A stretch of DNA of 64,000 nucleotides. It comes from Bacilli bacterium. Its GTDB lineage: Bacteria > Bacillota_I > Bacilli_A > RF39 > UBA660. The DNA is taken from the NCBI GenBank assembly GCA_017460175.1, contig JAFUBO010000006.1, positions 55,383 to 119,382 of the forward strand, written 5' to 3'. Below the pieces are notes generated by a model. The model ran no database searches. It was not told the DNA's origin and worked only from the letters and a program-made list of their open reading frames with translations. Shown one piece after another: positions 2,431 to 55,468 of the stretch. A program made the position numbers and the translations under genes. Each line of letters opens with the position of its first letter. Position 1 is the stretch's first letter.

Positions 2431-2455
2431 TAGGAAATATAAGGGTTTACGAGGA

Positions 2456-2576
2456 TTTTGTCCACGTGAAAATTGACCGAAAATTGCCATTTGTCCACAT
2501 TTTGTCCACGTAAATTTAAAATTGTGGACAACAGGACAAAAAGTGTTGTGAAATTTAGTACACGTTTTGTGGACAA
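2456..2576. repeat. Left-arm integrase arm-type sites (TTGTCCAC / GTGGACAA repeats)
   Basis: TTTTGTCCACG 2456-2466, tandem TTTGTCCACATTTTGTCCAC 2490-2509, inverted TTGTGGACAA near 2522 and 2567; same motif at the right end. Confidence 0.75.
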
Positions 2577-2646
2577 TTTATAAAGATAAATGTCATCATT
2601 CGATGGCATTTTTTGTTTACCAATTTTAGAAAAGGAGAGTATAAAA

Positions 2647-3954
2647 ATGGTAAGCGTAAGAAAACGAGGAAAGGTATATGAATACCGATTTGAAACAGCT
2701 TCAGTTGATGGCACAAGGAAATGGATTACTAAATCTGGATTTCCAACAAGACAAGATGCATTAAATCAAGGTGCATTAGATTATACAGAATATTATAAGA
2801 TAGGAAGAGTTAGAAGAAATAAAGATATGTCATATTCTGATTACTTAGATTATTGGATTGATACTTATTGTAACTTTAATCTTAAATATTCAACTATTGT
2901 TACATACTTAAATATTATTAAGCTTTACTTAAAACCTATGTTAGGAAGATATGCACTATGGCAAATTGATTCTCAAATGTTACAAGAATTTATTAATAAA
3001 ATATTTGTAGAAAAGAATTTATCTAAATGGTATTTAAAAAACATAATGAAAGTAGTTAAAGGTTCATTAAGATATGCATGTTATTCAGTTAATTTTATAA
3101 ATGAAAATCCTGCTGAAAAAGTACATATTCCAAGATATGAAGTAGTATGTGGAGATCCAGCACATATATTTACACAAGAAGAAATAGAGAAAATATTAGA
3201 TAGATTTAAAGATGTTCCTTATATTTATTATTCTTTTTTAACTGCATATTACACAGGTATGAGAGTATCAGAAGTATATGGATTAACTTGGGATAATATT
3301 AATTTTGAAAAAAAGACTATAACTATTAATAAAAATATTATTAAAAAGAATAAGTATGGATTACCTAAAAGATATTGTATAAGTAAAGGACACTCTGTTG
3401 AGGTATGGAGTTATGGAACTTGTAAAAATCCTCAAAGTCAAAGAACAATATCTATAGGAGATACATTAGTCAAAGCATTAAAAGAATATAAGAAACTTCA
3501 AGAAGAAAATAAAGAATACTATGGCGAATCTTATCTAAAACATTATGAAAAAAGAATAATGAATGAATACACAAATAGACCTGAAATAAAAATAGTTGAT
3601 GCTAAGGCAGAAATAGAAGTAGATCTACCTGAAGCTAAATTAGTATTTGTAAGAGCTAATGGGGATTTTAGAGGAACTGAATCACCAAGACATGCATTTA
3701 AAGTTATTAATTATGAACTTGGAATACCTTGTAGATTTCATGATTTTAGAGATACTCATGCAACTAGATTAATAGAACAAGGTGCAGATATAAAAGCAGT
3801 ATCAAAAAGGCTAGGACATTCAACAATAATGACTACTTATAATATATATGTAAGGGTAACAAATAAAATGGAAACAGAAACAGTTAATAAATTTGAAGAT
3901 TATGCTAATACTTTAGATATTCCACCTGTACAAGACATAGAATATCAAGATTAG
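2647..3954 (+). CDS. Tyrosine integrase 1 (arm-binding N-domain, SAM-like domain, catalytic domain)
   Basis: RBS AAAGGAG then ATG 2647; TGMRVSE (R), HDFRDTHAT (HxxR), LGHS, TYNIY (Y); N-terminal KRGKVYEYRF...KSGFPTRQDA. Confidence 0.95.
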   Translation: MVSVRKRGKVYEYRFETASVDGTRKWITKSGFPTRQDALNQGALDYTEYYKIGRVRRNKDMSYSDYLDYWIDTYCNFNLKYSTIVTYLNIIKLYLKPMLGRYALWQIDSQMLQEFINKIFVEKNLSKWYLKNIMKVVKGSLRYACYSVNFINENPAEKVHIPRYEVVCGDPAHIFTQEEIEKILDRFKDVPYIYYSFLTAYYTGMRVSEVYGLTWDNINFEKKTITINKNIIKKNKYGLPKRYCISKGHSVEVWSYGTCKNPQSQRTISIGDTLVKALKEYKKLQEENKEYYGESYLKHYEKRIMNEYTNRPEIKIVDAKAEIEVDLPEAKLVFVRANGDFRGTESPRHAFKVINYELGIPCRFHDFRDTHATRLIEQGADIKAVSKRLGHSTIMTTYNIYVRVTNKMETETVNKFEDYANTLDIPPVQDIEYQD

Positions 3955-3973
3955 TCATTCCCTAAATAAGGAA

Positions 3974-4001
3974 TTGACAAATTTTTAAAAAGTGATAATA
4001 T
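3974..4001 (+). promoter_or_regulatory. Putative sigma-A promoter
   Basis: TTGACA, 16 bp, TAATAT upstream of the small ORF. Confidence 0.5.
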
Positions 4002-4046
4002 ATATAACCAATGAAAGAGGTATTCTCTAGAAATGGAGGTACAGCT

Positions 4047-4112
4047 ATGAAAAAACAATCGAAATTAGTAAATCTTTATAATGAATTATTTAGAGGTGTC
4101 GGTAGTATTTAA
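4047..4112 (+). CDS. 21-aa small ORF, putative leader peptide (MKKQSKLVNLYNELFRGVGSI)
   Basis: Strong RBS GGAGGT 6 nt upstream of ATG; 3' end overlaps a terminator stem. Confidence 0.55.
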   Translation: MKKQSKLVNLYNELFRGVGSI

Positions 4113-4140
4113 ACACTTTAATACTATTGACACCTTTTTT
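4094..4140 (+). terminator. Intrinsic terminator / attenuator
   Basis: AGGTGTCGGTAGTATT pairs with AATACTATTGACACCT (two G-U pairs), followed by a T-tract. Confidence 0.75.
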
Positions 4141-4168
4141 CGTAGTATTTAGAAGTAAGGGTGGTAAA

Positions 4169-4792
4169 ATGATTAAAGTAAAGGATGGTAAATTACAAGC
4201 TGAATTATTAGATAATAAAGGAACATTATCTAACAAAATAATTGAACAATATGATTATATTGAACTAAAAAATGATTTTGCTGAAATAGTAGATATATTA
4301 TCTACAAATATGTTAGTTCATGCGATGTATCAAGAAGCATTGAAATATGAAATAACTGAAGACTTAGAGTTTAAAATCTTTATTGATGAAAATGTTAAAG
4401 ATTATACAATGACCTATGATTTTGCTACTAATTATACGTATTTTTCTAAAACTAATACTAGTCTAATCACATTAGATAGAAAGAACTATGATAGATCTAT
4501 AGAAATGTGTATGATTCTTTTAAAAAAAGTGAAAGCATCTTATGATAAATTAAATGAAGTAGAAAAGTTTATAATTAAATCATTAGAATTTGATAATCCA
4601 CCCGAAACTGATGAAGAATTAATGGATAGATTAATGACATATAAAAATGGTTATTATTTATCAAAGAAAAGTGCATATATTAAAATGGCATTACAATTGA
4701 ATATTAAAAATGTTGTAAAAAGAGAGAGAACAGATATAATAAAACAAGCAATGGCAGATGCTTGTATTGTTACAATTTCTGATAATAAATAA
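4169..4792 (+). CDS. ArpU/RinA-like transcriptional regulator (putative)
   Basis: C-terminal half YDKLNEVEKFIIK...DEELMDRL...YYLSKKSAYIKMALQL follows the ArpU-family pattern; start moved to ATG 4169 after AAGGGTGGT. Confidence 0.55.
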   Translation: MIKVKDGKLQAELLDNKGTLSNKIIEQYDYIELKNDFAEIVDILSTNMLVHAMYQEALKYEITEDLEFKIFIDENVKDYTMTYDFATNYTYFSKTNTSLITLDRKNYDRSIEMCMILLKKVKASYDKLNEVEKFIIKSLEFDNPPETDEELMDRLMTYKNGYYLSKKSAYIKMALQLNIKNVVKRERTDIIKQAMADACIVTISDNK

Positions 4793-4854
4793 TAATCGGA
4801 AATTAGTAATATTCCGTTCTTTATAGGTATAAATTTTTATACCTATTTTTTATG
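4791..4854 (+). repeat. Cassette-boundary unit copy 1: CGGAA-N10-TTCCG palindrome plus terminator
   Basis: AATAATCGGAAATTAGTAATATTCCG then ATAGGTATA/TATACCTAT hairpin and T-tract; related copy at 7123-7182. Confidence 0.7.
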
Positions 4855-4859
4855 CTTTA

Positions 4860-4888
4860 TTGACTAAACTAATTAGATTAGTTATAAT
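4860..4888 (+). promoter_or_regulatory. sigma-A promoter with overlapping palindromic TetR operator
   Basis: TTGACT-17-TATAAT; inverted repeat AACTAAT-tag-ATTAGTT at 4867-4883 in the spacer. Confidence 0.7.
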
Positions 4889-4915
4889 GATAATGTAATT
4901 AGTTAGGAGGATATT

Positions 4916-5488
4916 ATGGCAAGAAATAGTATTAGTGATGAGCTAATTATTGAAACATCTGCTAGACTTTCAAATAAAGTTGGATTAGATAATTTATCTT
5001 TAAAAATGATTGCTGAAGAATTGGATATAAAATCTCCATCTTTATATAACCATATTTCAAGTCTTGATGACATTAAAGAAAAACTAATGATTTATGGTTG
5101 GAAAGAATTGGGAGAAAAGGCAATTGATTCAGCAGTTGGTGTATCTGGTTATGATGCACTAAGAAAAATGTGTTATGCATTTTATGACTATACTACAAAT
5201 AACAAAGGTGTATTTCAAGCAATGCTTTGGTATAACAAATTTAAAAGTGATGAAATGGCAAATGCAACAATAAAAATATTTGGCATATTACATAAAATAT
5301 TAGAACCATTAAATATTAGTAGTAATAATGTAGAGCATATTATAAGAACTTTAAGAAGTTTTTTAGAAGGTTTTTCTTTATTGGTTAATAATAATTCATT
5401 TGGTAATCCAATATCTATTAAAGAAAGTTTTGATTTATCATTAGATATTATTATTAATGGAATAAAATCTTTGGAAGGAGTTAAATAA
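4916..5488 (+). CDS. TetR/AcrR family regulator
   Basis: N-terminal HTH GLDNLSLKMIAEELDIKSPSLYNH. Confidence 0.92.
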   Translation: MARNSISDELIIETSARLSNKVGLDNLSLKMIAEELDIKSPSLYNHISSLDDIKEKLMIYGWKELGEKAIDSAVGVSGYDALRKMCYAFYDYTTNNKGVFQAMLWYNKFKSDEMANATIKIFGILHKILEPLNISSNNVEHIIRTLRSFLEGFSLLVNNNSFGNPISIKESFDLSLDIIINGIKSLEGVK

Positions 5489-5489
5489 A

Positions 5490-6233
5490 ATGAATGAGTA
5501 TATTAATTTAAATGAAAAGAATATTGATGAAGAACATATTTGTTGTGCAATTGGTGATCCTAAACATCAAGATGGTGTTGATAAAAAGAAAGAATGGATT
5601 AAAAGCAAATTAAAAGATGGTCATGTATTTAGAAAGTTAAATGCAAGAGGTAAAATCTTTATTGAGTATGAGCCAATAGAAACTGCTTGGGTTCCTATCA
5701 ATGGTAAAAACTATATGCATATTTATTGCTTATGGGTAGCAGGTAGTTTTAAAGGAAAAGGTATTGGTAAAGAATTATTAGAATATGCTATTGAAGATGC
5801 TAAATCTAAAAAAATGAGTGGTGTTTGTACATTGGTATCACAAAAGAAAAAACCATTTATTGGAGATAAGAAATTTTTTGAACATTATGGCTTTAAAGTA
5901 GTAGATACAATCAATGATTATGAATTAATGGCATTACAATTTGATGATAAAGAAACACCTAAGTTTAGTGATAGTTGTAGAAAAATGGAAATAGATAACA
6001 AAGATTTTACTATTTATTATTCTAATGAATGTCCTTATGTAGAATATGAGGTTAAAGAATTATCAGATTATGCTAAAGATAAAGGTATTAAATTAAACTT
6101 CATAAAAATTGATTCATTAGAGAAAGCAAAAAATGCTCCATGTATATTTAATAACTGGGCTAATTTCTATAAAGGAAAATTTGTATCTAATACAATATTA
6201 AATGCAAATGCATTTGAGAAACTAATTAAATAG
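5490..6233 (+). CDS. GNAT acetyltransferase with YoaP-like C-terminal domain
   Basis: EHICCAI, CLWVAGSFKGKGIGKELL acetyl-CoA motif, C-terminal CPY thioredoxin-like segment. Confidence 0.85.
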   Translation: MNEYINLNEKNIDEEHICCAIGDPKHQDGVDKKKEWIKSKLKDGHVFRKLNARGKIFIEYEPIETAWVPINGKNYMHIYCLWVAGSFKGKGIGKELLEYAIEDAKSKKMSGVCTLVSQKKKPFIGDKKFFEHYGFKVVDTINDYELMALQFDDKETPKFSDSCRKMEIDNKDFTIYYSNECPYVEYEVKELSDYAKDKGIKLNFIKIDSLEKAKNAPCIFNNWANFYKGKFVSNTILNANAFEKLIK

Positions 6234-6234
6234 T

Positions 6235-7122
6235 ATGGAATTTGTAAAAGCAAAAACTATACTATCAAAAGTTAAATATGGTGCTGATTGGTATGGTATA
6301 GATTATAATATGAATCTTTATAGAGGTTGCTCTCATGGATGCATATATTGTGATAGTAGAAGTAATTGCTATCATATAGATAATTTTGATGTTCCTAAAG
6401 GAAAAGAAAATGCACTAGCAATATTGGAAAACGAATTATCTAAAAAGAAAGAAAAAGGTGTTGTAGGTATTGGATCAATGTCTGACACTTATAATCCTTT
6501 TGAAAAACAATATGAACAAACAAGAGGTGCATTAAAATTATTATCTAAATATAATTTTGGAGTTTCTATTGATACAAAAAGTGATTTAATATTAAGAGAT
6601 TTAGATATACTTAAAGAAATCAATTCAAAGAACAATGTAATAATTAAATTTACAATAACAACTCCTGATGATGAATTATCAAAAGTAATAGAACCTCGTG
6701 TATGTGTTTCATCAAAAAGATTTGAAGCAATTAAAACTTTAAATGATAATGGAATATTTACAGGGATAATGATGAATCCAGTATTACCGTTTATTACTGA
6801 TAATGAAGAAGATATTATAAAGTTAGTTGCACTAGCACATGAAAGTGGAGCTAAATTTATTCAAACATATATGGGAATGACTTTAAGAGAAAATCAAAGA
6901 GATTATTATTTTGAACAATTGGATAAACATTTTAAGGGATTAAAAGACAAATATATTAATTATTATGGAGAAAGATATAATTGTGCTGTTCCTAATTATA
7001 AATCATTATATAAAGTGTTTACTAATGAATGTGATAAATATGGAATACTTTATAATATGAAAGATATTATTAAAGCGTATAAAAAAGAAATAAAGGATAA
7101 TGAACAAATATCATTATTCTAG
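6235..7122 (+). CDS. Radical SAM protein, SplB/Rv2578c-like
   Basis: NLYRGCSHGCIYC (CxxxCxxC), GSMSDTY, TKSDLILRD; ends in QISLF. Confidence 0.88.
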   Translation: MEFVKAKTILSKVKYGADWYGIDYNMNLYRGCSHGCIYCDSRSNCYHIDNFDVPKGKENALAILENELSKKKEKGVVGIGSMSDTYNPFEKQYEQTRGALKLLSKYNFGVSIDTKSDLILRDLDILKEINSKNNVIIKFTITTPDDELSKVIEPRVCVSSKRFEAIKTLNDNGIFTGIMMNPVLPFITDNEEDIIKLVALAHESGAKFIQTYMGMTLRENQRDYYFEQLDKHFKGLKDKYINYYGERYNCAVPNYKSLYKVFTNECDKYGILYNMKDIIKAYKKEIKDNEQISLF

Positions 7123-7182
7123 AATGATCGGAAGATTAAGATATTCCGAACAAAGTGGGTAGAAATACCTGCTTTTTTTATG
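7123..7182 (+). repeat. Cassette-boundary unit copy 2: CGGAA-N10-TTCCG palindrome plus terminator
   Basis: AATGATCGGAAGATTAAGATATTCCG then GTGGGTA-GAAA-TACCTGC hairpin and T-tract. Confidence 0.7.
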
Positions 7183-7322
7183 TAGGAAAAATTTAGGAAT
7201 AATTATTATAGTTTTTTAGGATAAAAATAGAGAATTTTTTGACATGTTTTAAATAATCAATATTCGAGATAATGGTATTGAACAAAGGCCGATGTTCAGT
7301 AATTTGAAAGGAGATTAAAAAC

Positions 7323-7850
7323 ATGGAAGACTATATTGTAATTTATGCAGTAGTACCAAAACATATTTATGAAACAAAATTATTAACACCAGAAGAAAAA
7401 TTGATTGCTGAACGTATTATATACTTATGCAAAAAGGAAGGATATTGTTGGATAACAAATAAAAAACTTTCAGAAATGTATAATATAACAATAGAAACAG
7501 CTTCAAGGCATATTAAGAAATTAGAAAAGATAGGATTAATTAAATGTATTTATGATCACAATGATAAAAATACTAGAAGGGTTATTCAACTAGTTGATGA
7601 TATATGGGATAAATGGTCAACTAGAGATAAATCAAATAATCAAGAAGATATTGATTATTCAGTTAAACATAATAATAAATATAATAAAAGAAATAATTAT
7701 AAATATAATAGTGATAAATATGATAAAACACCAGTTCCTTGGTGGCTTAATGAAGATATTAAATCTGAACCTGCTACTCCTGAAGAACAAGCTGAAATGG
7801 AAAGAATGATAAGAGAGATTACTGGAGAGGATAGTGATTCAGATGAATGA
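7323..7850 (+). CDS. HTH protein resembling phage replication initiator N-terminus
   Basis: LTPEEKLI...GYCWITNKKLSEMYNITIETASRHIKKLEKIGLI winged-helix pattern, followed by an N/K-rich AT-rich linker. Confidence 0.65.
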   Translation: MEDYIVIYAVVPKHIYETKLLTPEEKLIAERIIYLCKKEGYCWITNKKLSEMYNITIETASRHIKKLEKIGLIKCIYDHNDKNTRRVIQLVDDIWDKWSTRDKSNNQEDIDYSVKHNNKYNKRNNYKYNSDKYDKTPVPWWLNEDIKSEPATPEEQAEMERMIREITGEDSDSDE

Positions 7851-8073
7851 TAAGTTAGTTTATACAGTTCATGAAGTATCGTCTATATTACATTCTAGTC
7901 CAAATTATATTTATGAATTAATTAAAAAAGGTTATTTACCTGCTATTAAATTAGGAAGTTTAAAAGTATTAAAATCTTCACTAGAAAGATTCTTAATTCA
8001 AAATGAAGGAAAAGATTTATCCAATTTATCTGATATTAAAAAGATAGTAATTGAGGTAGAAGTAAATGAGTAA
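7843..8073 (+). CDS. Excisionase-like HTH protein
   Basis: LVYTVHEVSSIL...YIYELIKKGYLPAIKLG (HTH_17 pattern); overlaps the second integrase start. Confidence 0.8.
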   Translation: MNDKLVYTVHEVSSILHSSPNYIYELIKKGYLPAIKLGSLKVLKSSLERFLIQNEGKDLSNLSDIKKIVIEVEVNE

Positions 8074-9346
8074 AATCAATATCAGAAAAAGAGGAAACTT
8101 CTATGAATATAGAATTGAAATAGCAAAGGTAGATAATAAAAGACAATGGTTAAGTAAATCAGGATTTAGAACTAAAGCAGAAGCTTTAGAATCTGGTTCC
8201 CTTGCATATACTGAATACTTAAATGCAGGTATTCCATTTAAACAATGTGATTTATCTTATTCAGATTATCTTGATTATTGGTTAGAAAATTATTGTATGA
8301 ATAATCTAAAATATAATACTATTCAAACATATAAAATAATAATAAATAAGTATTTAAAAAAGAGTATAGGAAAATATAAGTTATCAACAATAACAAGTGT
8401 TGCTTTAAATTCATTTATAACTGATTTAGTTAATGAGTATAATCATTCTAAAACTTATTATAAGAATATATTAAAAGTTATTAAAGGATCATTTAGAGAT
8501 GCATGTAATCTATATGGATTTATAAAATATAATCCAGCTCTTACATTAAGACTACCTAAAATAGAAGAAGAACTTAATAATAAAAGACATTATTATACAA
8601 ATGAAGAAATAGATAAAATAATGGATAGATTTAAGGACAATGCTACATTTGTAGCTTCGTTCTTAACATCATGTTATACAGGAATGAGAACTGGAGAAGT
8701 GTTTGCTCTTACTTGGGAAGATATTGATTTAGAAAATGGAATAATAAATATAAGACATAACTTATATGATAAACCTAAAGATAGTTTAGGAAGATGGTAT
8801 TTGGGAACGACTAAAACTATATCTGGGACAAGACAAATTTACATTGGAAATACATTAATAACAGCTTTAAAGAACTATAAAGAAAGACAAGAATATCTTA
8901 AAGAAGTATTTGGTAAAGATTATAAATATTATCACTTAGAAACAATAACAAATGATAATGGAAAAGTTGTTGATAAAAGAATAGTTATTAACAAAGATAA
9001 TGAAGAAAAATTAAATCTAGTATTTACTAATGATGATGGATCATTCTCTGGAACTGATGTTCCTAAATATCCATTTAAAATAATACATAATGAATTAGGA
9101 ATAGAAAAATGTAGATTCTATGATTTAAGAGGAACTTATGCAACTAAAGTATTAAATAACGGAACTAAGATTAATGATGTAGCTAATTTGTTAGGACATA
9201 GAAATGTAGAAACAACAGAAAATTATTACATTACAAGTTTAGAGGATAATAGAAAGAGTGCTGTAGAATTATTTGATAAAAATAATAAATCTAATGTTAT
9301 AGAAAATGTAATAAAATTTCAAATACAAGAAGGTAAATTAGTATGA
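8066..9346 (+). CDS. Tyrosine integrase 2 (paralog of integrase 1)
   Basis: TGMRTGE, FYDLRGTYAT (YxxR instead of HxxR), LGHRNVETTENYY; same arm-binding N-terminus and SYSDYLDYW segment as integrase 1. Confidence 0.92.
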   Translation: MSKINIRKRGNFYEYRIEIAKVDNKRQWLSKSGFRTKAEALESGSLAYTEYLNAGIPFKQCDLSYSDYLDYWLENYCMNNLKYNTIQTYKIIINKYLKKSIGKYKLSTITSVALNSFITDLVNEYNHSKTYYKNILKVIKGSFRDACNLYGFIKYNPALTLRLPKIEEELNNKRHYYTNEEIDKIMDRFKDNATFVASFLTSCYTGMRTGEVFALTWEDIDLENGIINIRHNLYDKPKDSLGRWYLGTTKTISGTRQIYIGNTLITALKNYKERQEYLKEVFGKDYKYYHLETITNDNGKVVDKRIVINKDNEEKLNLVFTNDDGSFSGTDVPKYPFKIIHNELGIEKCRFYDLRGTYATKVLNNGTKINDVANLLGHRNVETTENYYITSLEDNRKSAVELFDKNNKSNVIENVIKFQIQEGKLV

Positions 9347-10527
9347 ATTATGCAATATTTAGAAGTGAACCTATTTATACTTTAAATGATTTAGCACAAA
9401 TTGGATCACATAATAAAAGAGAGAAAAAAACATATCAATCTAATCCTGATATAGACTTATCTAAAACAAAAAATAATGTAGAACTTGTTCCACTTAATAT
9501 GAAATATGTTAAAGGATTTTATGAAATAACTAAAGACTATAAAAAAGAACATGAAGAAAGAATGAAAATTGAAAGAGATGATAGAAAAAGAACATTTAGA
9601 CAAATGGTAGATAAATCAAAAAGTGTAGTTGCAGATGAATTAGTATTCACTGCAACACACACATTCTTTAATGATATGAGTAAAGAAGATATTAAAAACT
9701 GGGCTGACAGATGTATGGAATTTGTACATTTTGGGTTAGGATATGAAGATAATCAAATATTACATGCAACATTACATATGGATGAAAAAACACCTCATGT
9801 TCATTGTGTAGTAGTTCCAATAGTTAAGAAGTTAGATAAAAGAACTAATACAGAAAGGTATACAATATCTAAAAAACAATTTATACGTGATAAAGAACAC
9901 TTGAGTGAGTTACAAGATGAATATTGTGAATATCTAAATATGTGTGGTTTTGCTTTAGAAAGAGGAACTAAACATAGTGATAGAGAACATATTAATATTA
10001 AAGAGTTTAAGAAGCTAACTAAATCATTAACTAATGAACTAGATCTAAAAGATGATAAGTTATCAAAATCAATTAATGAATTAGAAGAAAAAATGAAATC
10101 AAATAAGACTGTTATGTTTGATAAAGAATCTGTTAAAGTTAAGAAAGAAACTTTTGATAGTATGAATAAAGTAGTAGAAGAAGCAAAGAAAGTTAAAGAT
10201 TTAAAACCTAAACTAAATAATGCTTATAAGAACCTTAAAGAGGTAACAAATGATTATTCAAAAATACATCAACAAAATATGAAACTAGAAGATGAAAATA
10301 GAAATTTAAAATATGAAAATACTAATTTAAGATATAAAGCATTTACTTTATCTAATACAATTGATACATTAAAAAATGTCATCAATAAAATGGCTAATTT
10401 TGTATATCATTTAGTAGCTGATGGATTAATACCTAGACATAAAGAAGATGAATTTAATGATGAATTTGAAGAGTTTATTAGTGGTAAAAGGAAGAATAAG
10501 GACAAAGACGACAGTCTTGTTCTTTAG
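9343..10527 (+). CDS. MobV/Pre-family relaxase (plasmid recombination enzyme)
   Basis: N-terminal YAIFR...HNKRE, HUH motif ATLHMDEKTPHVH, LERG, coiled-coil C-terminus. Confidence 0.92.
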   Translation: MNYAIFRSEPIYTLNDLAQIGSHNKREKKTYQSNPDIDLSKTKNNVELVPLNMKYVKGFYEITKDYKKEHEERMKIERDDRKRTFRQMVDKSKSVVADELVFTATHTFFNDMSKEDIKNWADRCMEFVHFGLGYEDNQILHATLHMDEKTPHVHCVVVPIVKKLDKRTNTERYTISKKQFIRDKEHLSELQDEYCEYLNMCGFALERGTKHSDREHINIKEFKKLTKSLTNELDLKDDKLSKSINELEEKMKSNKTVMFDKESVKVKKETFDSMNKVVEEAKKVKDLKPKLNNAYKNLKEVTNDYSKIHQQNMKLEDENRNLKYENTNLRYKAFTLSNTIDTLKNVINKMANFVYHLVADGLIPRHKEDEFNDEFEEFISGKRKNKDKDDSLVL

Positions 10528-10544
10528 ACTATCTTTCTGACAAG

Positions 10545-10589
10545 ATAGTAACACACTATGATATTGGCAGAGCCAATAACAATGTGTGC
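10545..10589 (-). other. MOBV (pMV158-type) oriT
   Basis: Minus strand reads GCACAC-[TATTGGC/GCCAATA hairpin]-TAGTGTGTTA, matching the pMV158 nick region TAGTGTG^TTA preceded by GCACAC. Confidence 0.75.
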
Positions 10590-10802
10590 CAAGGATAAAC
10601 CCTTTGGAATCTCATTCAAGCACCAATACTACAAACTAACGTAAGTAGTAAAGGTGCCTTTTTTATTTCAACATTGCGTTTCATAAAAAAGAAAAATACT
10701 ATCGCCACTTTCATTACTTCGTAACAAAACGTGCCACGTATTTTATCATGTTAGAATGCCGTAAAATCGTGGTATAATATTTTTAATGGAAGGAGTGATA
10801 TT

Positions 10803-12941
10803 ATGTCAAATTTGTTAAAAGATAATAAAGAATTAATGATCGAATGGAATTATGATAAGAATAAAAATGTTGATATAAATAATATCACTCTTGGATCGAA
10901 TAAAAAAGTATGGTGGATATGTAATAAAGGTCATGAATGGCAAGCAATTATAGCAAGTCGTTCAACATATAAAACAGGGTGCCCTTATTGTTCAAATAAA
11001 AAAATATTAAAAGGTTATAATGATTTAGTGACTGTTAACTATAATTTATCGTTAGATTGGGATTATAAAAAAAATAAAATTAATCCTACAATTATTTCAC
11101 CAAACTCACATGAACATGTATGGTGGAAGTGTTCTAAATGTGGACATGAATGGAACGCAGAAATAAAGTCAAGAAATCAAGGGGTTGGTTGTCCTGAATG
11201 TGGTAAGAAAAAATTTATAAAGACTAGAATTAGTAACTCTATTCAAAAAAAGGGCTCTCTAGCAACTAATTATCCCTATATAGCAAGTCAATGGAATTAT
11301 AATAAAAATGAAGGCTTAAAACCAGAAGAAGTTACTCCATATTCAAGTAAAAAAATATGGTGGATATGTGAAAAAGGTCATGAGTGGGAAACAACAATTT
11401 CAAGTAGAACAATGAGCAAGACCGGTTGCCCTTATTGCACAAATGAAACGCAAACATCTTTTGCTGAACAAACATTGTTTTACTATTTAAAAAAAATTTT
11501 CAAAAATGTATATAATAGGTATTTAATTGAGAATCAGGAAGTAGATATTTTTATACCAAAGTATTTAATTGGTATTGAATATGATGGAGCAAGATTTCAC
11601 AACAATAAATCATCTATTAAACGTGAACAAAATAAATATCAAATATTAAAGAAAAATAAAATTACATTGATAAGAATAAGGGAGTATTATAATGAAACAT
11701 ATAATATAGATTCAGCTGATTATTATCTTGGATATAGTAATAATCAAAAAAATAAGAATCTAAATAATATAGTTAGAGATATGTTTGATTTAATTTCAAG
11801 AATAATAGATAAAAAAATTTCATTAGATATTGATGTAGATAGAGATAGAAGTGATATTTATAATTTATACATTTTAAGTGAAAAAGAAAATAGTCTATTA
11901 CTAAAAAAACCAGAAATATGCAAATATTGGAATTATGAAAGAAATGGATTATTAACTCCAGATAAGGTTCCTGCAGGAAGCAGTAAAAGAGTTTGGTGGA
12001 AATGCGAATATGGTCATGAATGGCAGGCAATAATATCAAGTAGAACAGAAAAAAGTGATTGTCCATTTTGTTTAAATCAAAAAGTTTTGAAGGGATTCAA
12101 TGATATAAAAACTACTAGTCCAGATTTATTGGCCGAGTGGAATTTTGATAAAAATAAAATAAAACCAGATGAAATAACTTCTGGAAGTAATCAAAAAATC
12201 TGGTGGAAGTGTTCTAAGTGCGGACATGAATGGAACGCTATTGTTAATAGTAGAGTTCGTGGTAATGGATGTCCAAATTGTAAGAAAGATAAAATATCAA
12301 TACAACAAAAAGAAGTTGGCTTAAAAAAGTATGGTAGTTTGAAGAAAAATCATCCGACTTTATTAAATGAATGGGACTATCAGAAGAATAAGGAAATAAA
12401 TCCGGATAAAATAACTTCTTCAGCAAAATATAAGGTTTGGTGGAAATGTTCTAAATGCGGACATGAATGGAATGCTTGGATAGCAGATAGAACACAAGGA
12501 AAAGGTTGCCCAGAATGTGGCAAGGAAAAAATGATACAAAAAAGAATAGCAAACCAAATTGCTATTACCGGAAGTTTATATGATAACAATATTGATTTAG
12601 CTAAAGAATGGAATTATGAAAAAAATAAGGAATTAAATCCTAAAAGTGTTACATCTAACTCAAATAAAAAGATCTGGTGGAAGTGTTCTAAATGTGGATA
12701 TGAATGGCAGGCAATAATATCTTCTAGAAATAGTGGTGCAGGTTGTCCAAAATGTACAAATCATATAAAACGAAGAGTTGGACAATATGATAAAAAGTAT
12801 ATTTTAATAAATGAGTATGCTTCTATATATGAAGCATCCAAGAGTACAGGTATTCATACAACATCCATTAGTAATGTATGCAAAGGAATCTCAAAAACAG
12901 CTGGAAAATATTATTGGAAATATTTAGATGATGAGAAGTAG
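10803..12941 (+). CDS. Multi zinc-ribbon (treble-clef/DUF4379-like) repeat protein with central Vsr/DUF559-like nuclease and C-terminal NUMOD1-like HTH
   Basis: Seven W-x3-N...WWxC..GHEW...CPxC repeats; EVDIFIP...IGIEYDGARFH; VGQYD...EYASIYEASKSTGI...ISNVCKG..KTAGKYYWKY. Confidence 0.8.
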   Translation: MSNLLKDNKELMIEWNYDKNKNVDINNITLGSNKKVWWICNKGHEWQAIIASRSTYKTGCPYCSNKKILKGYNDLVTVNYNLSLDWDYKKNKINPTIISPNSHEHVWWKCSKCGHEWNAEIKSRNQGVGCPECGKKKFIKTRISNSIQKKGSLATNYPYIASQWNYNKNEGLKPEEVTPYSSKKIWWICEKGHEWETTISSRTMSKTGCPYCTNETQTSFAEQTLFYYLKKIFKNVYNRYLIENQEVDIFIPKYLIGIEYDGARFHNNKSSIKREQNKYQILKKNKITLIRIREYYNETYNIDSADYYLGYSNNQKNKNLNNIVRDMFDLISRIIDKKISLDIDVDRDRSDIYNLYILSEKENSLLLKKPEICKYWNYERNGLLTPDKVPAGSSKRVWWKCEYGHEWQAIISSRTEKSDCPFCLNQKVLKGFNDIKTTSPDLLAEWNFDKNKIKPDEITSGSNQKIWWKCSKCGHEWNAIVNSRVRGNGCPNCKKDKISIQQKEVGLKKYGSLKKNHPTLLNEWDYQKNKEINPDKITSSAKYKVWWKCSKCGHEWNAWIADRTQGKGCPECGKEKMIQKRIANQIAITGSLYDNNIDLAKEWNYEKNKELNPKSVTSNSNKKIWWKCSKCGYEWQAIISSRNSGAGCPKCTNHIKRRVGQYDKKYILINEYASIYEASKSTGIHTTSISNVCKGISKTAGKYYWKYLDDEK

Positions 12942-12971
12942 CAATACTTCTTTTATATTGCATAAAAATAC

Positions 12972-13092
12972 CACAACACTTTTAGTTGACGGAAAATACT
13001 ACGTGGACATTGTTTATTTAATCAATATGTAGTATAATATCCTTGTAAACAAAGGATAAATTGGATGATGACTTTGTCCACATTTTGTCCAC
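12972..13092. repeat. Right-arm integrase arm-type sites
   Basis: TTTGTCCACATTTTGTCCAC 13073-13092 identical to 2490-2509; CGTGGACA near 13002; CACAACACTTTT 12972-12983 is the inverse of AAAAGTGTTGTG 2539-2550. Confidence 0.75.
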
Positions 13093-13226
13093 ATTGAACA
13101 AATTATTAGTAATATTTATAATACAAATAATACTGATAATAATATGTACTAAATGCCCATAAAATAAGGCAAAAAGCCATAATACTATATGTACCAAATA
13201 TAGTGTAAATATGCTCAAAAAGGGAG

Positions 13227-13270
13227 CATGTGGCTCAGACAAGAAATATAAGCAGTGCCATGGTAAATAA
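13227..13270 (+). pseudogene. attR core plus displaced secA 3' tail (CGSDKKYKQCHGK*)
   Basis: CATGTGGCTCAGACAAGAAATATAAGCAGTGCCATGGTAAATAA aligns without gaps to secA 2387-2430. Confidence 0.88.
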
Positions 13271-13317
13271 ACTCGCAACACCGCATAAAATAAGGGAAAA
13301 CGCGAGTTTTTTCTTTG

Positions 13318-13371
13318 CTAAAAAATTGCGAAAAATCATGAAAATTTCACTTTAGATACCTTTTAGATACC
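13318..13371 (+). repeat. ~54-bp direct repeat copy 1 with tandem TTAGATACC motif
   Basis: CTAAAAAATTGCGAAAAATCATGAAAA...TTTAGATACCTTTTAGATACC; similar to 14170-14223. Confidence 0.7.
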
Positions 13372-13430
13372 TTTTCACAGGTGTTTTTGAAAACTAATAA
13401 GTATGATATAATTAATAAAGGAGTGGTAAC

Positions 13431-16644: not shown

Positions 16645-16734
16645 ATAATTTAAATAAAAAGTAAAGGAAATTAATCCTTTATTTTTTTTTATAGTAGTGC
16701 TATAATAAAAAACTAATTTAAAAAGGAGGTGGGA

Positions 16735-18093
16735 TTGTTGTCTAATATTAAACTAATTAAAGACGAAAAAGGTTTTGGTTACCAATATACTATAATCGGT
16801 AGTGATAATAAAAAGCGTTATGTTAAAAAAAGTGGATTTAAAACACCAAATGAAGCATATAAAGCTGCAGAAAAATCTTATAATGATAAACTTAATAACG
16901 GATATACTGATAAAAATAATCCCATCAAAATAAAAAAACTTAATCTATCTACATTTGGAATGTATTTATTAAATACAGTAATTACAGGAGGGTTAGTTTT
17001 CACAGTAGTAAGTGGAGGAATAAAATTACAGAGAGAATTAAAAGAAATACTACCAGAAATTACAAAAAGAGACTTTCTTGTAGATGATTATAATAATACT
17101 ATCATAGAAATAACTGAAAAAGATTGTGATTTTTCAAATTTACATATAATAATAAGAACTGCCAAAACAGAAGTTAATGGAGTAGCCGCTGTAACTTGTG
17201 ATCAATTAACTAGACTTGGCGTATCTAATGAAATTATTAATAAAGATAGTGATATTGCCTATAAAATATCTAATGCTATAGCTACACATCCAGATGATGA
17301 TATAGTACTGATAAATTTAGAAACAGAATTAGAAAATGAAGATAGCCAACAAACAATTATTATGGGTGATTCTTCAAATAGAAGAGAATATTCATCCGAT
17401 GTATTAATTTCATGTTTAAATACATCACTAAAACAATACAATGTAGATCCAATAATACGTAGTGGAGAAGCAACAGGAAATGGTTGGAGATTAGATAGTT
17501 ATATAGAGATTGAATTAAATAATGCTGTATTAATTGATAATATATCTCAATTTACTATAGATTTACCTATAACTGTATCAGAAGATGAAATAATTAGAAA
17601 TGATTGTGCCTCAGCTATAGTAGAAGGTATAATGCGTTGGTGTACAATAGATCACAATGATAGATATGAAAATATCTATTATACTGCCAAATATGGTGAG
17701 ACATTACAAAGTATCTCAGCCATTTTTGACACATCAAGTATTATTCTTCAAAATAATAGTGATATTAATATATATAAAGAATTAAATGTAGGAGACACAG
17801 TAACAGTAGGTTTAATACCAGAAGCTGCAGAATATAATGTAAATGTTAATAATCCATATACTACAAGTGATATCAATTCTATAGAACCAATAATATATGA
17901 ATACATAGTAGAAAGTGGAGATACTCTCACATCAATAGCTAATAATTATGGAGTTAAAATAGAAGATATTATGACTGAAAGCGGAGATCCTAATAATATT
18001 AGAATAGGAGAAACCCTATATATTAGTACATATAATTTATATGAAACAGATGAAAAGATAAATTTGCTAGACGTAAAAGAAAAAACAATATAA
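16735..18093 (+). CDS. Fusion protein: integrase arm-binding-like domain, TM helix, degenerate amidase_3-like domain, two LysM domains
   Basis: KRYVKKSGFKTPNEA similar to integrase N-termini; hydrophobic aa ~76-98; YTAKYGETLQSIS and YIVESGDTLTSIANNYGV LysM motifs; TTG start after AGGAGGT. Confidence 0.7.
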   Translation: MLSNIKLIKDEKGFGYQYTIIGSDNKKRYVKKSGFKTPNEAYKAAEKSYNDKLNNGYTDKNNPIKIKKLNLSTFGMYLLNTVITGGLVFTVVSGGIKLQRELKEILPEITKRDFLVDDYNNTIIEITEKDCDFSNLHIIIRTAKTEVNGVAAVTCDQLTRLGVSNEIINKDSDIAYKISNAIATHPDDDIVLINLETELENEDSQQTIIMGDSSNRREYSSDVLISCLNTSLKQYNVDPIIRSGEATGNGWRLDSYIEIELNNAVLIDNISQFTIDLPITVSEDEIIRNDCASAIVEGIMRWCTIDHNDRYENIYYTAKYGETLQSISAIFDTSSIILQNNSDINIYKELNVGDTVTVGLIPEAAEYNVNVNNPYTTSDINSIEPIIYEYIVESGDTLTSIANNYGVKIEDIMTESGDPNNIRIGETLYISTYNLYETDEKINLLDVKEKTI

Positions 18094-18151
18094 AAAAAGA
18101 TATAGATATATATCTTTTTTTTTGTTATAATCTTATCAGTAGGTGAAGTAT

Positions 18152-18745
18152 ATGAGTAAAAAGAAAATTGCATTATTAATAAATACATTAATCTTAATAT
18201 TAGAATTAATTGCTATTGGAGGAAGTCTATTAAAAGATCATTTTATTGCATTAGAGTATTATACTAACGATAGTAATATTATAGCGTTATTTAGTTCATT
18301 ATTATTTATTATTTTTTATAAAAAAGACTTAAAGATAGTAAAAGATTTAAGATTACTTGCTACAAGTTTATTAACAGTAACATTTATAGTAGTAATCACA
18401 ATATTAGTACCAATGTATAACTTTAATTATAAACTTTTAATGTTTACTGACAATTTTCTAATACTTCATACTATATGTCCAATACTTTGTATTATTTCAT
18501 ATGTATTTTTTGAAAAAACAAGTGATAAGATTTATTTATGTCCAATATTAACTATAGTTTATTCAATAATATTAGTACTTATGAATATATTTAAATTAGT
18601 AGATGGACCTTATCCATTCTTAAAAGTAAATACTCAATCAATAATAGTATCATTATTATGGGGAATACTTATAATAGGAGGAAGTTACTTTATTAGTAGT
18701 TTACTTAATTATATAAACAAAAAAATACAAGGAGCTAAAAATTAG
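18152..18745 (+). CDS. Integral membrane protein, Pr6Pr-like
   Basis: YYTNDSN, LHTICPIL, GPYPFL motifs; about 6 TM segments. Confidence 0.6.
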   Translation: MSKKKIALLINTLILILELIAIGGSLLKDHFIALEYYTNDSNIIALFSSLLFIIFYKKDLKIVKDLRLLATSLLTVTFIVVITILVPMYNFNYKLLMFTDNFLILHTICPILCIISYVFFEKTSDKIYLCPILTIVYSIILVLMNIFKLVDGPYPFLKVNTQSIIVSLLWGILIIGGSYFISSLLNYINKKIQGAKN

Positions 18746-18907: not shown

Positions 18908-20006
18908 ATGGATACAAAAGATATAAAAAAAGCATTAGATAATAGTTTAGATAAAATTAATGGTTTATGGAGGGGACTTTGACATCCCTAAAAAGAAAGA
19001 AGAAATAGAAAAATTACAAAAGGAAACAGAAGATAATTCTTTTTGGAACGATAGAGAAAAAGCAGAGTCTACATTAAAAGAATTAAATAGTTTAAAAGAA
19101 TTAGTTAAAAGTGTAGAAGAATTAAAATTAGAAATAGAATCAAATATAGAGGTATTAAAACTATTAGAAATAGAAATTGATAATAATCTATATGAAGAAA
19201 TAGTTAATAGCACTAATGAACTACAAGAAAAAGTAGAAAAATTAAATATATTACTTATGCTAAATGGACCATATGATAAAAATGATTGTATATTAGAAAT
19301 ACATCCTGGGGCTGGAGGAACAGAGTCATGTGATTGGGCTAGTATGCTTTATAGAATGTATTTAAGATGGTGTGAAAAGAAAAAATACAAAGTAGAAATA
19401 TTAGATTATCAAGATGGAGAAGAAGCGGGTATTAAAAGTGTTTCACTTCTAATCAAAGGATTAAACGCTTATGGCTATTTAAAAAATGAAAAAGGAGTTC
19501 ATAGACTAGTAAGACTTTCTCCTTTTGATTCAAATAATAGAAGACATACTTCATTTGCTTCAGTAGAAATAACACCAGAAATAGAACAAGATAATACAAT
19601 AGAAATAGATGAAAAAGATTTAAAAATCGATGTTTATCGTTCAACAGGCGCAGGTGGACAAGGAGTAAATACAACAGATTCTGCAGTAAGAATTACCCAT
19701 TTACCTACTAAAATAGTAGTAACCTGTCAAAATGAAAGAAGTCAAATTCAAAATAAAGAGCAAGCTTTAAAAGTATTGAAAAATAAGCTAATGTTAAGAA
19801 AAATAGAAGAACAAGAAGAAGAATTAAATAAAATAAAAGGAATACAATCTAATATAGATTTTGGATCTCAAATAAGAAGTTACGTAATGCATCCATATTC
19901 TATGGTAAAAGATCATAGAACAAATATAGAAACAAGTAATGTATCCAAAGTATTAGATGGAGATATTGATTTATTTATAGAAAGTAATTTAAAAAAGGGG
20001 TTATAA
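18908..20006 (+). CDS. prfB: Peptide chain release factor 2 with programmed +1 frameshift
   Basis: ATG 18908 reads MDTKDIKKAL...WRGL to CTT-TGA-C at 18977-18983; +1 frame contains SPF and GGQ motifs. Confidence 0.97.
18969..18983 (+). promoter_or_regulatory. prfB frameshift signal
   Basis: Internal SD-like GGAGGGG followed by CTTTGAC. Confidence 0.93.
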
Positions 20007-24702: not shown

Positions 24703-25923
24703 ATGAATAATAAGATAGGTAAATTTATTTTTAAATTAAGAACAGAAAAAGGATTAAGTCAATATCAATTAGCGGAAATGATTCCAATAACTAGACAAGC
24801 AGTATCTAAATGGGAAAGAGGAGAAACAATACCAGATTCATTTACATTATTAAAACTAAGTGAACTATTTGACGTATCAATAAATGAACTATTATATGGA
24901 GAAAGACTATTAGACAATTCAGTAGAAACACTAGAACAATCAACCTTAAGTATTATTGATGACAGTAATAAAAAATCAAAAAAATTAAAACGCAGTTTTA
25001 TAATTTTTACTATTATCATATTAATTCTCTTATTAACCTTCTTATCATATTATTTTATAAATTCATATAATTCAATCAAAGTATATACAATAAGTGGTAG
25101 TAGTAATTCATTTTATACCAAAGATGGAATATTTATTACTACTAAACAAAAAAGTTATATTAAATTAAGTAAATTAAATTATAATGAAGACATAGAAATA
25201 AAAAATATAAAACTATATGTTAAAGATAATAATAAACAAAAAATAATATTAGAAAACAAAGATATAGATAATTTAACTCTTATGACTTCATCTGGATATT
25301 CAGAAAAACTTACTGGATTTAAAACTAATAAAATAGTAAATAATAGTTATCTAGAAATAACATATAATGACAATCAAAAAGAAACTATAAAATTAAAATT
25401 TCATAAAGATTTAGTAAATACAAAAGTATTCTTTAATACAAATGCAAATGAAATAGAAAAAATAGAAGAAGAAACAAAAACAGAAGAATTGGCTAAAGTT
25501 GAAGAACCAACTAAATCTGAAGAACCAACTAAACCTGAAGAACCAACTAAACCTGAAGAACCAACTATAAAAGAAGTGCCTATTAAACCTCAACCAGTAG
25601 AAAAAACAAAAAAAGAAACTAAACCACAAGAAACTATTCAAAAAGAAGAACCAAAAGAAGTAGAAATAACACCAGAATTAATAATAAATAAAATAAAAGA
25701 AAAAGGTGTTTATGCAGACGGAGCGTATGTAACAGTTAAAGAAGCAGATAATAAAAAAATTGAAATATACTATTTTGTAGATTTAAACCAACTTATGATC
25801 TTAAGTAATGAAGATTTTATATATGATTATTTATTTACTGAAAATAAATATCACTGCTATCAAACTGGCATAACAGATTGTAAAGAAAGTATTAATAATT
25901 TTTTGAAAGAAAATTTAATATAG
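24703..25923 (+). CDS. Membrane-anchored XRE-HTH protein
   Basis: LRTEKGLSQYQLAE...RQAVSKWERGETIPD HTH, TM helix, extracellular domain with EEPTKP repeats. Confidence 0.85.
   Translation: MNNKIGKFIFKLRTEKGLSQYQLAEMIPITRQAVSKWERGETIPDSFTLLKLSELFDVSINELLYGERLLDNSVETLEQSTLSIIDDSNKKSKKLKRSFIIFTIIILILLLTFLSYYFINSYNSIKVYTISGSSNSFYTKDGIFITTKQKSYIKLSKLNYNEDIEIKNIKLYVKDNNKQKIILENKDIDNLTLMTSSGYSEKLTGFKTNKIVNNSYLEITYNDNQKETIKLKFHKDLVNTKVFFNTNANEIEKIEEETKTEELAKVEEPTKSEEPTKPEEPTKPEEPTIKEVPIKPQPVEKTKKETKPQETIQKEEPKEVEITPELIINKIKEKGVYADGAYVTVKEADNKKIEIYYFVDLNQLMILSNEDFIYDYLFTENKYHCYQTGITDCKESINNFLKENLI
25501..25567 (+). repeat. 18-bp coding tandem repeat (EEPTKP, ~3.7 copies)
   Basis: GAAGAACCAACTAAA(T/C)CT units. 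Confidence 0.9.
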
Positions 25924-55156: not shown

Positions 55157-55468
55157 ATGAACTTTAAAGTAGGAGATGAAGTTGTAGTTATCACTGGTTC
55201 TGATAAAGGTAAAAAAGGAAAAATAATTAAAACATTAAAGGCAGAAAATAAAGTTATAGTTGAAGGTGTACATGTTGTTAAAAAACATCAAAAACCAACA
55301 GGACAAGAAACTGGTGGAATAATCGAAAGAGAAGCACCAATTCATGCTTCAAATGTTATGATTGTAGATCCTAAAACTAAGAAAAGAACTAGAATAGGAC
55401 ATACAACTGATACAAAAACAAATAAAAAAATTAGAATAACAAAAAAATCAAACGAGAAGATTGATTAA
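55157..55468 (+). CDS. rplX: 50S ribosomal protein L24
   Basis: [25 protein letters not shown]. Confidence 0.98.

Follow-up and report, generated by a model that had tools for sequence, protein, structure and literature searches.

What is the DNA-binding end of an integrase doing at the start of a putative membrane protein whose outer part is predicted to bind the cell wall? The question is raised by a gene in a 64,000-nucleotide stretch of DNA from a member of the Bacilli (lineage RF39, UBA660), which spans positions 55,383 to 119,382 of contig JAFUBO010000006.1 in assembly GCA_017460175.1 and is hereafter called the window. A reading of the letters alone, referred to below as the sequence-only reading, had proposed that the gene joins an integrase arm-binding-like domain to a membrane anchor, an inactive amidase-like domain and two LysM domains. 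This four-part architecture was found in the protein itself and in 36 homologs. By analogy with the membrane-bound one-component DNA binders, we favor, by a little over even chances, an envelope protein that links the wall and DNA. The gene, its parts and the signals before it are the following, in window coordinates.

16698..16706, + strand: extended -10 promoter element TGCTATAAT; TGnTATAAT and the leader are kept in the window and in the loci L013 and L014.
16725..16729, + strand: Shine-Dalgarno sequence GGAGG, 8 nt 5' of TTG 16738; GAGGTGG is kept in L013 and L014.
16738..18093, + strand: coding sequence of 451 amino acids (aa) with a TTG start, the start being assigned by collinearity with the homologs.
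16738..16902, + strand: residues 1-55, integrase-type arm-binding domain (AP2-like, PF14657) of beta-beta-beta-alpha order, predicted to be cytoplasmic; from PF14657, hhalign and AlphaFold2 (AF2).
16924..16953, + strand: residues 63-72, juxtamembrane motif IKIKKLNLST; I-K-[KN]-[LI]-x-[IL]-[TS] is conserved in both tail types of the family.
16954..17022, + strand: residues 73-95 (F73-I95), putative single hydrophobic transmembrane anchor FGMYLLNTVITGGLVFTVVSGGI, probably N-in, lying within the AF2 helix 72-104.
17104..17652, + strand: residues 123-305, predicted Amidase_3-fold domain without the canonical metal site (pseudo-amidase); from VIA, Foldseek and the Atlas structure search.
17677..17808, + strand: residues ~314-357, LysM 1; from Pfam, with AF2 strands at 314-316 and 354-356 and helices at 323-329 and 334-340.
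17902..18033, + strand: residues 389-432, LysM 2; the best Pfam LysM stretch is 389-429 in the numbering of P0002, the database copy of the protein.

To judge from its sequence, the N-terminal domain is homologous to the arm-binding N-termini of Tn916-class tyrosine integrases. The accessible text of 10.1101/542381 describes PF14657 (Arm-DNA-bind_4) as the arm-binding domain of the Int_Tn916 subgroup, composed of three strands and one helix. A profile check of the protein places its N-terminus at the threshold of this family: hmmscan gives 21.4 bits (E 1.9e-4) over residues 18-58 of the 454-aa frame, and in a six-frame search of its own genome the gene is the top match at 24.5 bits, which exceeds the gathering cut-off (22.3 bits), with the two true integrases scoring 17.3 and 16.8 bits, below the gene. 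PF14657 is matched at E<=0.01 by 14 of the 36 homologs, the best value being 3.2e-6.

In a blastp search of residues 1-60 (a database of five sequences, with E-values that are local to it), the two integrases of the window, whose likeness to this N-terminus the sequence-only reading had noticed, are 34.5% identical over 55 aa (E 6e-8) and 25% identical over 40 aa (E 0.002), and three integrases of sister genomes are 35-39% identical over 51-56 aa. When the domain was searched across the genus genomes, integrases with such an N-terminus were retrieved with per-genome E-values down to 3.4e-8. The gene and the integrase N-termini align without gaps from Met1 of both, and the integrase pattern is kept throughout the domain, including the KSGFKT..EA core and the basic residues. 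Profile-profile comparison of the domain with same-genus integrase N-termini by hhalign yields 98.9% probability (E 1.4e-17, 57 columns) and 0.1% for the reversed control, in line with the integrase origin that had been suspected. PF14657 clusters also make up 12 of the 30 hits of the Atlas feature search. The recombinase itself is not present: neither PF00589 nor PF14659 has a match in the protein at E<=10, and what comes after residue 57 is a linker, the anchor, the amidase-like domain and LysM.

Folded alone, the domain is modelled by AF2 as strands 5-9, 12-20 and 26-34 followed by helix 37-53, at a predicted local distance difference test score (pLDDT) of 83. It carries a mean net charge of +5.4. 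Pairwise identity averages 0.52 in this domain, compared with 0.26-0.41 for the linkers, 0.53 for LysM1 and 0.53-0.66 for the LysM domains. Because its conservation equals that of LysM1 and exceeds that of the linkers, the domain has been maintained by selection. The sequence-only reading had allowed for homologs that start downstream of the domain, yet all 36 full-length homologs begin with it.

The AF2 model of the full protein, built from a 36-sequence alignment, has a mean pLDDT of 82 and comprises strands and helix over residues 5-53, a helix at 72-104, an alpha/beta domain at 123-301 and two LysM-like units. Across the homologs, the hydrophobic stretch begins 60 to ~130 residues into the protein, behind a folded domain. 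Downstream of the basic N-domain, the mean net charge is +2.5 for the linker and -10.9 for the amidase-like domain, and both LysM domains are negative. Since the hydrophobic helix lies far in, past a folded basic domain, and the ectodomain is acidic, we read it as a signal-anchor instead of a cleaved signal, which agrees with the anchor proposed earlier. An N-in/C-out, single-pass type II protein is the natural reading of the topology, based on the charge distribution and on the action of LysM on peptidoglycan.

The middle domain is, by structural modelling, an Amidase_3 fold without the usual zinc-ligand histidines, i.e. a pseudo-amidase. In the VIA search with this domain, Amidase_3 structures fill the first 24 rows (Z 15.5-10.3, root-mean-square deviation 2.0-3.0, 139-156 residues), and other folds appear from Z 10.2 downward. 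The best Foldseek matches are AmiA, Ami1/Rv3717, AmiB, CwlD, AmiC2 and CwlV at E ~1e-4, and the Atlas structure search gives TM 0.64-0.74. The fold match is not accompanied by a profile match. PF01520 (Amidase_3) has no match in the window protein at E<=10, in any of the 36 homologs at E<=0.01 or in any of 10 further relatives at E<=0.1, and hhalign of the domain against three real Amidase_3 domains gives 1% probability. Of the earlier comparison of residues 130-305 with Amidase_3, the fold stands and the Pfam membership does not.

Amidase_3 enzymes bind zinc through a His-Glu-His set of ligands and use a catalytic glutamate. The real amidases examined show DAGHGG, EKD, SNH-NAG and VEYGF; we take the DAGHGG, EKD, SNH and VEYGF motifs to be the carriers of the zinc ligands and the catalytic glutamate. 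The corresponding strand ends in the family read IIIRTA, INLE and TIDLP, with IIIRTA and INLE standing where the enzymes have DAGHGG and SNH. Over residues 118-308, the sole histidine column at a 30% listing cut-off is H136 (81%), where the first strand begins, and in the homolog alignment the expected zinc positions, where strands 1 and 3 end, carry no conserved histidine. The earlier remark that no zinc ligands are visible in this segment thus holds for the family. The position of the catalytic glutamate is occupied by D275, and by alanine in six of eight distant relatives. Fourteen polar residues of the domain are invariant (R140, N164, E165, N193, E199, D211, S213, N214, R251, E257, Q271, N288, E296 and R300), and because so many are, a binding surface is probably conserved. 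The ectodomain cysteines C130 (100%) and C226 (97%) are conserved as well and may form a disulfide.

The LysM assignment is straightforward. Pfam LysM (PF01476) matches in two stretches at 50.4 bits against a cut-off of 20.9 (E 2.2e-13), a LysM match is present in 36 of 36 homologs, and the family profile retrieves LysM structures from the PDB at E 6e-8 with residues 326-383 aligned. PHROGs returned only LysM/endolysin tails and weak unnamed matches, and PADLOC returned none.

The history of the fusion can be approached through its relatives. A word-indexed search recovered 36 full-length homologs at 41-100% identity, each with the same four parts, and two proteins that match via LysM only; six further homologs were recovered with the N-terminal profile. 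An exhaustive search of representatives added P0042, P0046, P0051, P0052, P0054, P0055, P0057 and P0058 at 25-40% identity. In these eight distant relatives the anchor, the pseudo-amidase, the two LysM domains and the juxtamembrane motif are all retained, and the part before that motif is an unrelated acidic tail that contains the short motifs F.EIQKIF and EPKYENMH and no Pfam domain. One of them, P0042 of genome G193, belongs to the same taxonomic family, and its gene lies between pgi and an unrelated gene. A quick maximum-likelihood tree was computed from the C-terminal 335 residues of 46 proteins, of which 38 have and 8 lack the integrase domain. In it, all 38 integrase-domain forms fall on one side of a branch with a Shimodaira-Hasegawa-like approximate likelihood ratio (SH-aLRT) support of 98, and midpoint rooting nests them inside the other-tail forms. 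The simplest history is that the first ~55 codons of an integrase gene took the place of the old tail once. This indicates a captured integrase domain, and the term "domesticated", used in the sequence-only reading, fits these results.

The gene is real, conserved and chromosomal. Its open reading frame, with possible beginnings at 16729, 16735 and 16738, runs on the + strand to 18093, while the reverse strand of the locus is dense with stop codons. TTG codons are present at 16735 and 16738, both downstream of the GGAGG at 16725-16729. P0002 and all homologs start with M-[STA]-x-I-[KQ]; because TTG 16738 is collinear with the N-termini of P0002 and the 36 homologs, it is the likely translation start, giving 451 aa, and 16735 is also possible. 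The frame 16735-18093 given earlier is accordingly sustained as an open reading frame, and its start is probably to be moved one codon downstream. The -10 element, the leader and the ribosome-binding site are conserved among the three aligned upstream regions; a simple promoter scan did not report TGCTATAAT, as it found no -35 match. The GC content is even, 23-31%, over the first 30 kb of the window, including the surroundings of the gene, and nothing in this profile points to recent import. Nor does the promoter region of the gene visibly resemble, at the nucleotide level, the regions upstream of the integrase genes, so that a recent capture of the 5' end together with a promoter is not visible.

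The source genome is small (~0.99 Mb in 6 contigs, 94.6% complete). Of 25 genomes searched in the genus, two, G000 and G024, contain full-length matches. With the middle domain as query, 400 genomes of the class were scored; strong matches came from two of them (G000 and G193), together with two marginal ones, and P0051 as query picked out the same two among 399. Among 185,579 species genomes, a pattern scan picked up two loci, both in uncultured gut or rumen-type metagenome-assembled genomes, a metagenome scan found eight loci, and a sequencing-run search found 8 DNA runs from animal gut metagenomes, with no RNA run among the matches listed.

Downstream sequence is available for eight loci, i.e. 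the window, L013, L014, L028, L029, L030, L032 and L033. The release factor gene prfB follows in 7 of these 8, the remaining one, L030, ending before prfB could appear, and a gene for a 200-aa multi-pass membrane protein lies directly downstream in 6 of 8. The upstream neighbours vary: six loci have nrdD-nrdG with a hypothetical gene, two have proS and three have other genes. Because the locus before prfB is stable while the upstream neighbours vary, the gene is a fixed chromosomal resident of a clade and not cargo of the neighbouring element described below.

Two features of this downstream side deserve separate mention.

18143-18745: 200-aa multi-pass membrane protein, without a Pfam family and with a weak match to the NCBIfam family MAGa3780 (mycoplasma), 26.6 bits against a cut-off of 80.
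18909-20006: prfB, with a programmed +1 frameshift site AGG GGA CTT TGA C at ~18971-18983.

The 200-aa protein adjoins prfB in 5 genus genomes, with or without the LysM gene. It was considered and rejected as a dedicated partner, since genome G013 has LD-carboxypeptidase, the 200-aa protein and prfB, but not the gene. For prfB, the open reading frame finder lists only the downstream frame, from 18960, because of the frameshift site.

One or two integrative mobilizable elements lie directly after secA, at window positions 2440-13400.

2647-3954 and 8066-9346: tyrosine integrases of the element (PF00589 and PF14659).
9343-10527: Mob_Pre relaxase of the element, adjoining the integrase.
10803-12941: 712-aa element protein in which the DUF4379 treble-clef zinc finger is repeated seven times (E 2.6e-143), with a weak match to REase_MTES_1575.

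The window contains 11 copies of the arm-type repeat TTGTCCAC, where 1.0 would be expected, with 5 copies clustered at 2458-2576, between secA and the first integrase, and 2 at 13074-13092; TTAGATACC occurs at 13352, 13363 and 14203. Within the window, neither repeat is found near the gene, the nearest being a single TTGTCCAC inside prfB. By these repeat positions the gene starts ~3.4-3.6 kb beyond the right end of the element, which bears out the earlier placement outside the element at 3.5 kb. In the sister genome G022 an integrase (locus L003) also directly follows secA, so that the secA-adjacent site is a recurrent insertion site. Integrases with such an N-terminus were matched in 10 of the 25 genus genomes.

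We propose that, outside the cell, the LysM pair and the groove of the pseudo-amidase would hold peptidoglycan without cutting it and that, inside, the basic beta-sheet N-domain would bind DNA at the inner face of the membrane. Specific DNA sites could then be coupled to the wall, to its state or its position, and the protein would act as a membrane-tethered regulator or would anchor the nucleoid to the envelope. Its DNA target is unlikely to lie in the arm sites of the resident elements. A more specific version, which we hold to be unlikely, is a trans-envelope tether that fastens specific chromosomal sites to peptidoglycan, a nucleoid-positioning or division-site device made from a domesticated arm-binding domain. 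If true, it would represent a new kind of chromosome-to-wall anchor in a lineage with genomes of ~1 Mb, and a bacterial case in which the cell has put the DNA-binding domain of an integrase to its own use, much as AP2-type domains have been recruited as transcription factors in plants and apicomplexans.

Several results weigh against the proposal of a wall-DNA link or against its premises. The hmmscan score of 21.4 bits is slightly below the PF14657 cut-off of 22.3, and 22 of the 36 homologs miss E 0.01 for this family. Structure searches with the N-domain are not discriminating: the best Foldseek match has an E-value of only 0.39, and the exhaustive VIA search peaks at Z 6.1 with a double-stranded RNA-binding domain and other small alpha/beta domains, the plant GCC-box AP2 and apicomplexan AP2 domains ranking 17-18 at Z 5.0. 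No integrase arm domain, of Tn916 or lambda, is among the best 50 VIA rows, which does not exclude such a fold, and the profile of the domain retrieves nothing from solved structures below E 0.1 and no integrase domain. Since these structure searches alone give no proof, the homology to integrase arm domains rests on sequence. In addition, a word-indexed search with residues 1-60 recovered only the protein itself, from 7 candidates, and the N-domain profile found, among longer proteins, 29 proteins of the same family, with no other architecture and no integrase, probably owing to the limit of the word index. For the ectodomain, the register of the catalytic positions was taken from secondary structure with a weak hhalign segment, not from residue-level superposition. 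The tree was a quick search with an assumed root. The gene is undetected in most relatives (present in 2 of 25 in the genus and 2 of 400 in the class). Finally, the ancestral tail of the other-tail relatives is not a DNA-binding fold, and the core role of the family therefore seems to need no DNA.

This last point leads to the main alternative, which we regard as possible but doubtful, in which the protein is a wall-remodelling scaffold whose pseudo-amidase and LysM part regulates or localises hydrolases, and whose N-domain is an exapted contact or stabilising module that does not bind DNA. The relatives would serve the family function with a tail that lacks a DNA-binding fold, the juxtamembrane motif is common to both tail forms, and the beta-beta-beta-alpha fold is matched just as well by many proteins that do not bind DNA. 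A single canonical Amidase_3 enzyme is encoded in the genome, and a cluster of ftsE, ftsX and a PcsB-like M23 gene lies 3.7 kb downstream. Inactive LytM domains regulate autolysins according to the accessible text of PMC10336132. However, prfB and two yitT genes separate the gene from ftsEX, no partner protein is known, and the domain retains the integrase pattern over its whole length, with the KSGFKT..EA core and the basic residues, and has the charge of +5.4. It is quite improbable that the protein is instead an active, non-canonical membrane-anchored autolysin that uses other residues, with the N-domain being incidental. The strong fold match extends to active amidases, including the membrane-anchored LytH and CwlD, and the domain has its many invariant polar residues; but a conserved histidine is absent from the ends of strands 1 and 3, where the enzymes have DAGHGG and SNH, the aspartate at the catalytic-glutamate position becomes alanine in most of the distant relatives (6 of 8), and PF01520 matches 0 of the 46 proteins scanned.

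The sequence-only reading had also considered a decoy that sequesters att arms; the tethered domain would then occupy the arm sites of integrative elements and block or modulate their excision or integration. The nearest relatives of the domain are indeed the integrases of elements next to secA in the genus, and such an element ends only 3.4-3.6 kb from the gene. Nevertheless, the resident integrases are only 25% and 34.5% identical to the domain, the arm repeats are confined to the element ends, the TTGTCCAC nearest to the gene being the single copy in prfB, and the locus stays beside prfB whatever is upstream. Comparison of genomes with and without the element does not help the idea either, as the fusion (2 of 25 genus genomes) and such integrases (10 of 25) do not match in their presence across the genus. 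Since a decoy would also leave no role for a wall-binding ectodomain, we find this explanation unsupported and very improbable. The suspicion that the gene is an assembly chimera or a decaying fragment, joined by chance, is natural for a metagenome-assembled genome with an integrase-bearing element nearby, but its probability is close to negligible: the same architecture recurs in 36 database clusters, two other species genomes and eight metagenome loci, with all domains conserved and the frames uninterrupted.

In the full-text literature, with subscription journals and supplements outside the scope of the search, no description of this architecture was found. Each part is known; the combination and the capture event are new. 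Arm-binding domains are presented in the accessible text of 10.1101/542381 as the hallmark that turns simple recombinases into regulated integrases of phages and integrative and conjugative elements. Here, such a domain is detached from any recombinase, conserved, and joined to a predicted wall-binding ectodomain. If the preferred reading is right and the domain binds DNA, the protein would join wall and chromosome compactly in a gut lineage that is uncultured and has a very small genome, and it would be a clean example of a mobile-element gene fragment taken over by its host. Should the domain not bind DNA, a DNA-binding fold would have been re-used as the cytoplasmic adaptor of a pseudo-enzyme scaffold.

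Compared with the Tn916-class integrases, the protein has an N-terminal domain of the arm-binding kind (PF14657, formerly Integrase_AP2, with a score at the threshold) that shows the same pattern from Met1 and, as predicted, the same three strands and helix, whereas a membrane anchor and wall-binding domains replace the SAM-like core-binding and catalytic domains. The predicted order of its parts is that of the one-component proteins ToxR, TfoS and VtrA, in which a cytoplasmic DNA-binding fold, one transmembrane helix and an extracytoplasmic domain follow each other.

CadC and RodZ are N-in membrane proteins of the same part order with DNA-binding folds of the helix-turn-helix (HTH) or winged-helix type. 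Unlike in ToxR, CadC, TfoS, VtrA and RodZ, the inner fold here is the beta-sheet type of an integrase arm domain and neither a winged helix nor an HTH, and the outer side consists of the pseudo-amidase and LysM; the comparison is a working analogy and not a claim of a sequence family. As a separate observation, a second protein of the window has the order of DNA-binding fold, anchor and ectodomain. It is a 406-aa protein (24703-25923) with an N-terminal HTH_3 domain, a hydrophobic helix (~98-120) and an outer part of PEEPTK repeats, encoded directly after ftsE, ftsX and the PcsB-like M23 gene, 6.6 kb downstream of the gene discussed here.

On the outer side, the nearest comparison is with the Amidase_3 amidases. 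These include the membrane-anchored LytH and CwlD, which have the same fold (Z 13.4-15.5) in an extracytoplasmic domain behind an N-terminal anchor, and a real Amidase_3 enzyme, P0038, also pairs the fold with LysM. The present protein differs from them in having no profile match, no conserved histidine at the metal positions, and aspartate or alanine at the position of the catalytic glutamate. Catalytically dead hydrolase-like regulators are known in EnvC, NlpD and CwlM. The dead LytM factors, such as DipM, likewise conserve a hydrolase fold without its active site and often carry LysM, according to the accessible text of PMC10336132. The protein described here would differ from those factors in its Amidase_3 instead of LytM fold, in its membrane anchor and in its predicted cytoplasmic domain of a DNA-binding type.

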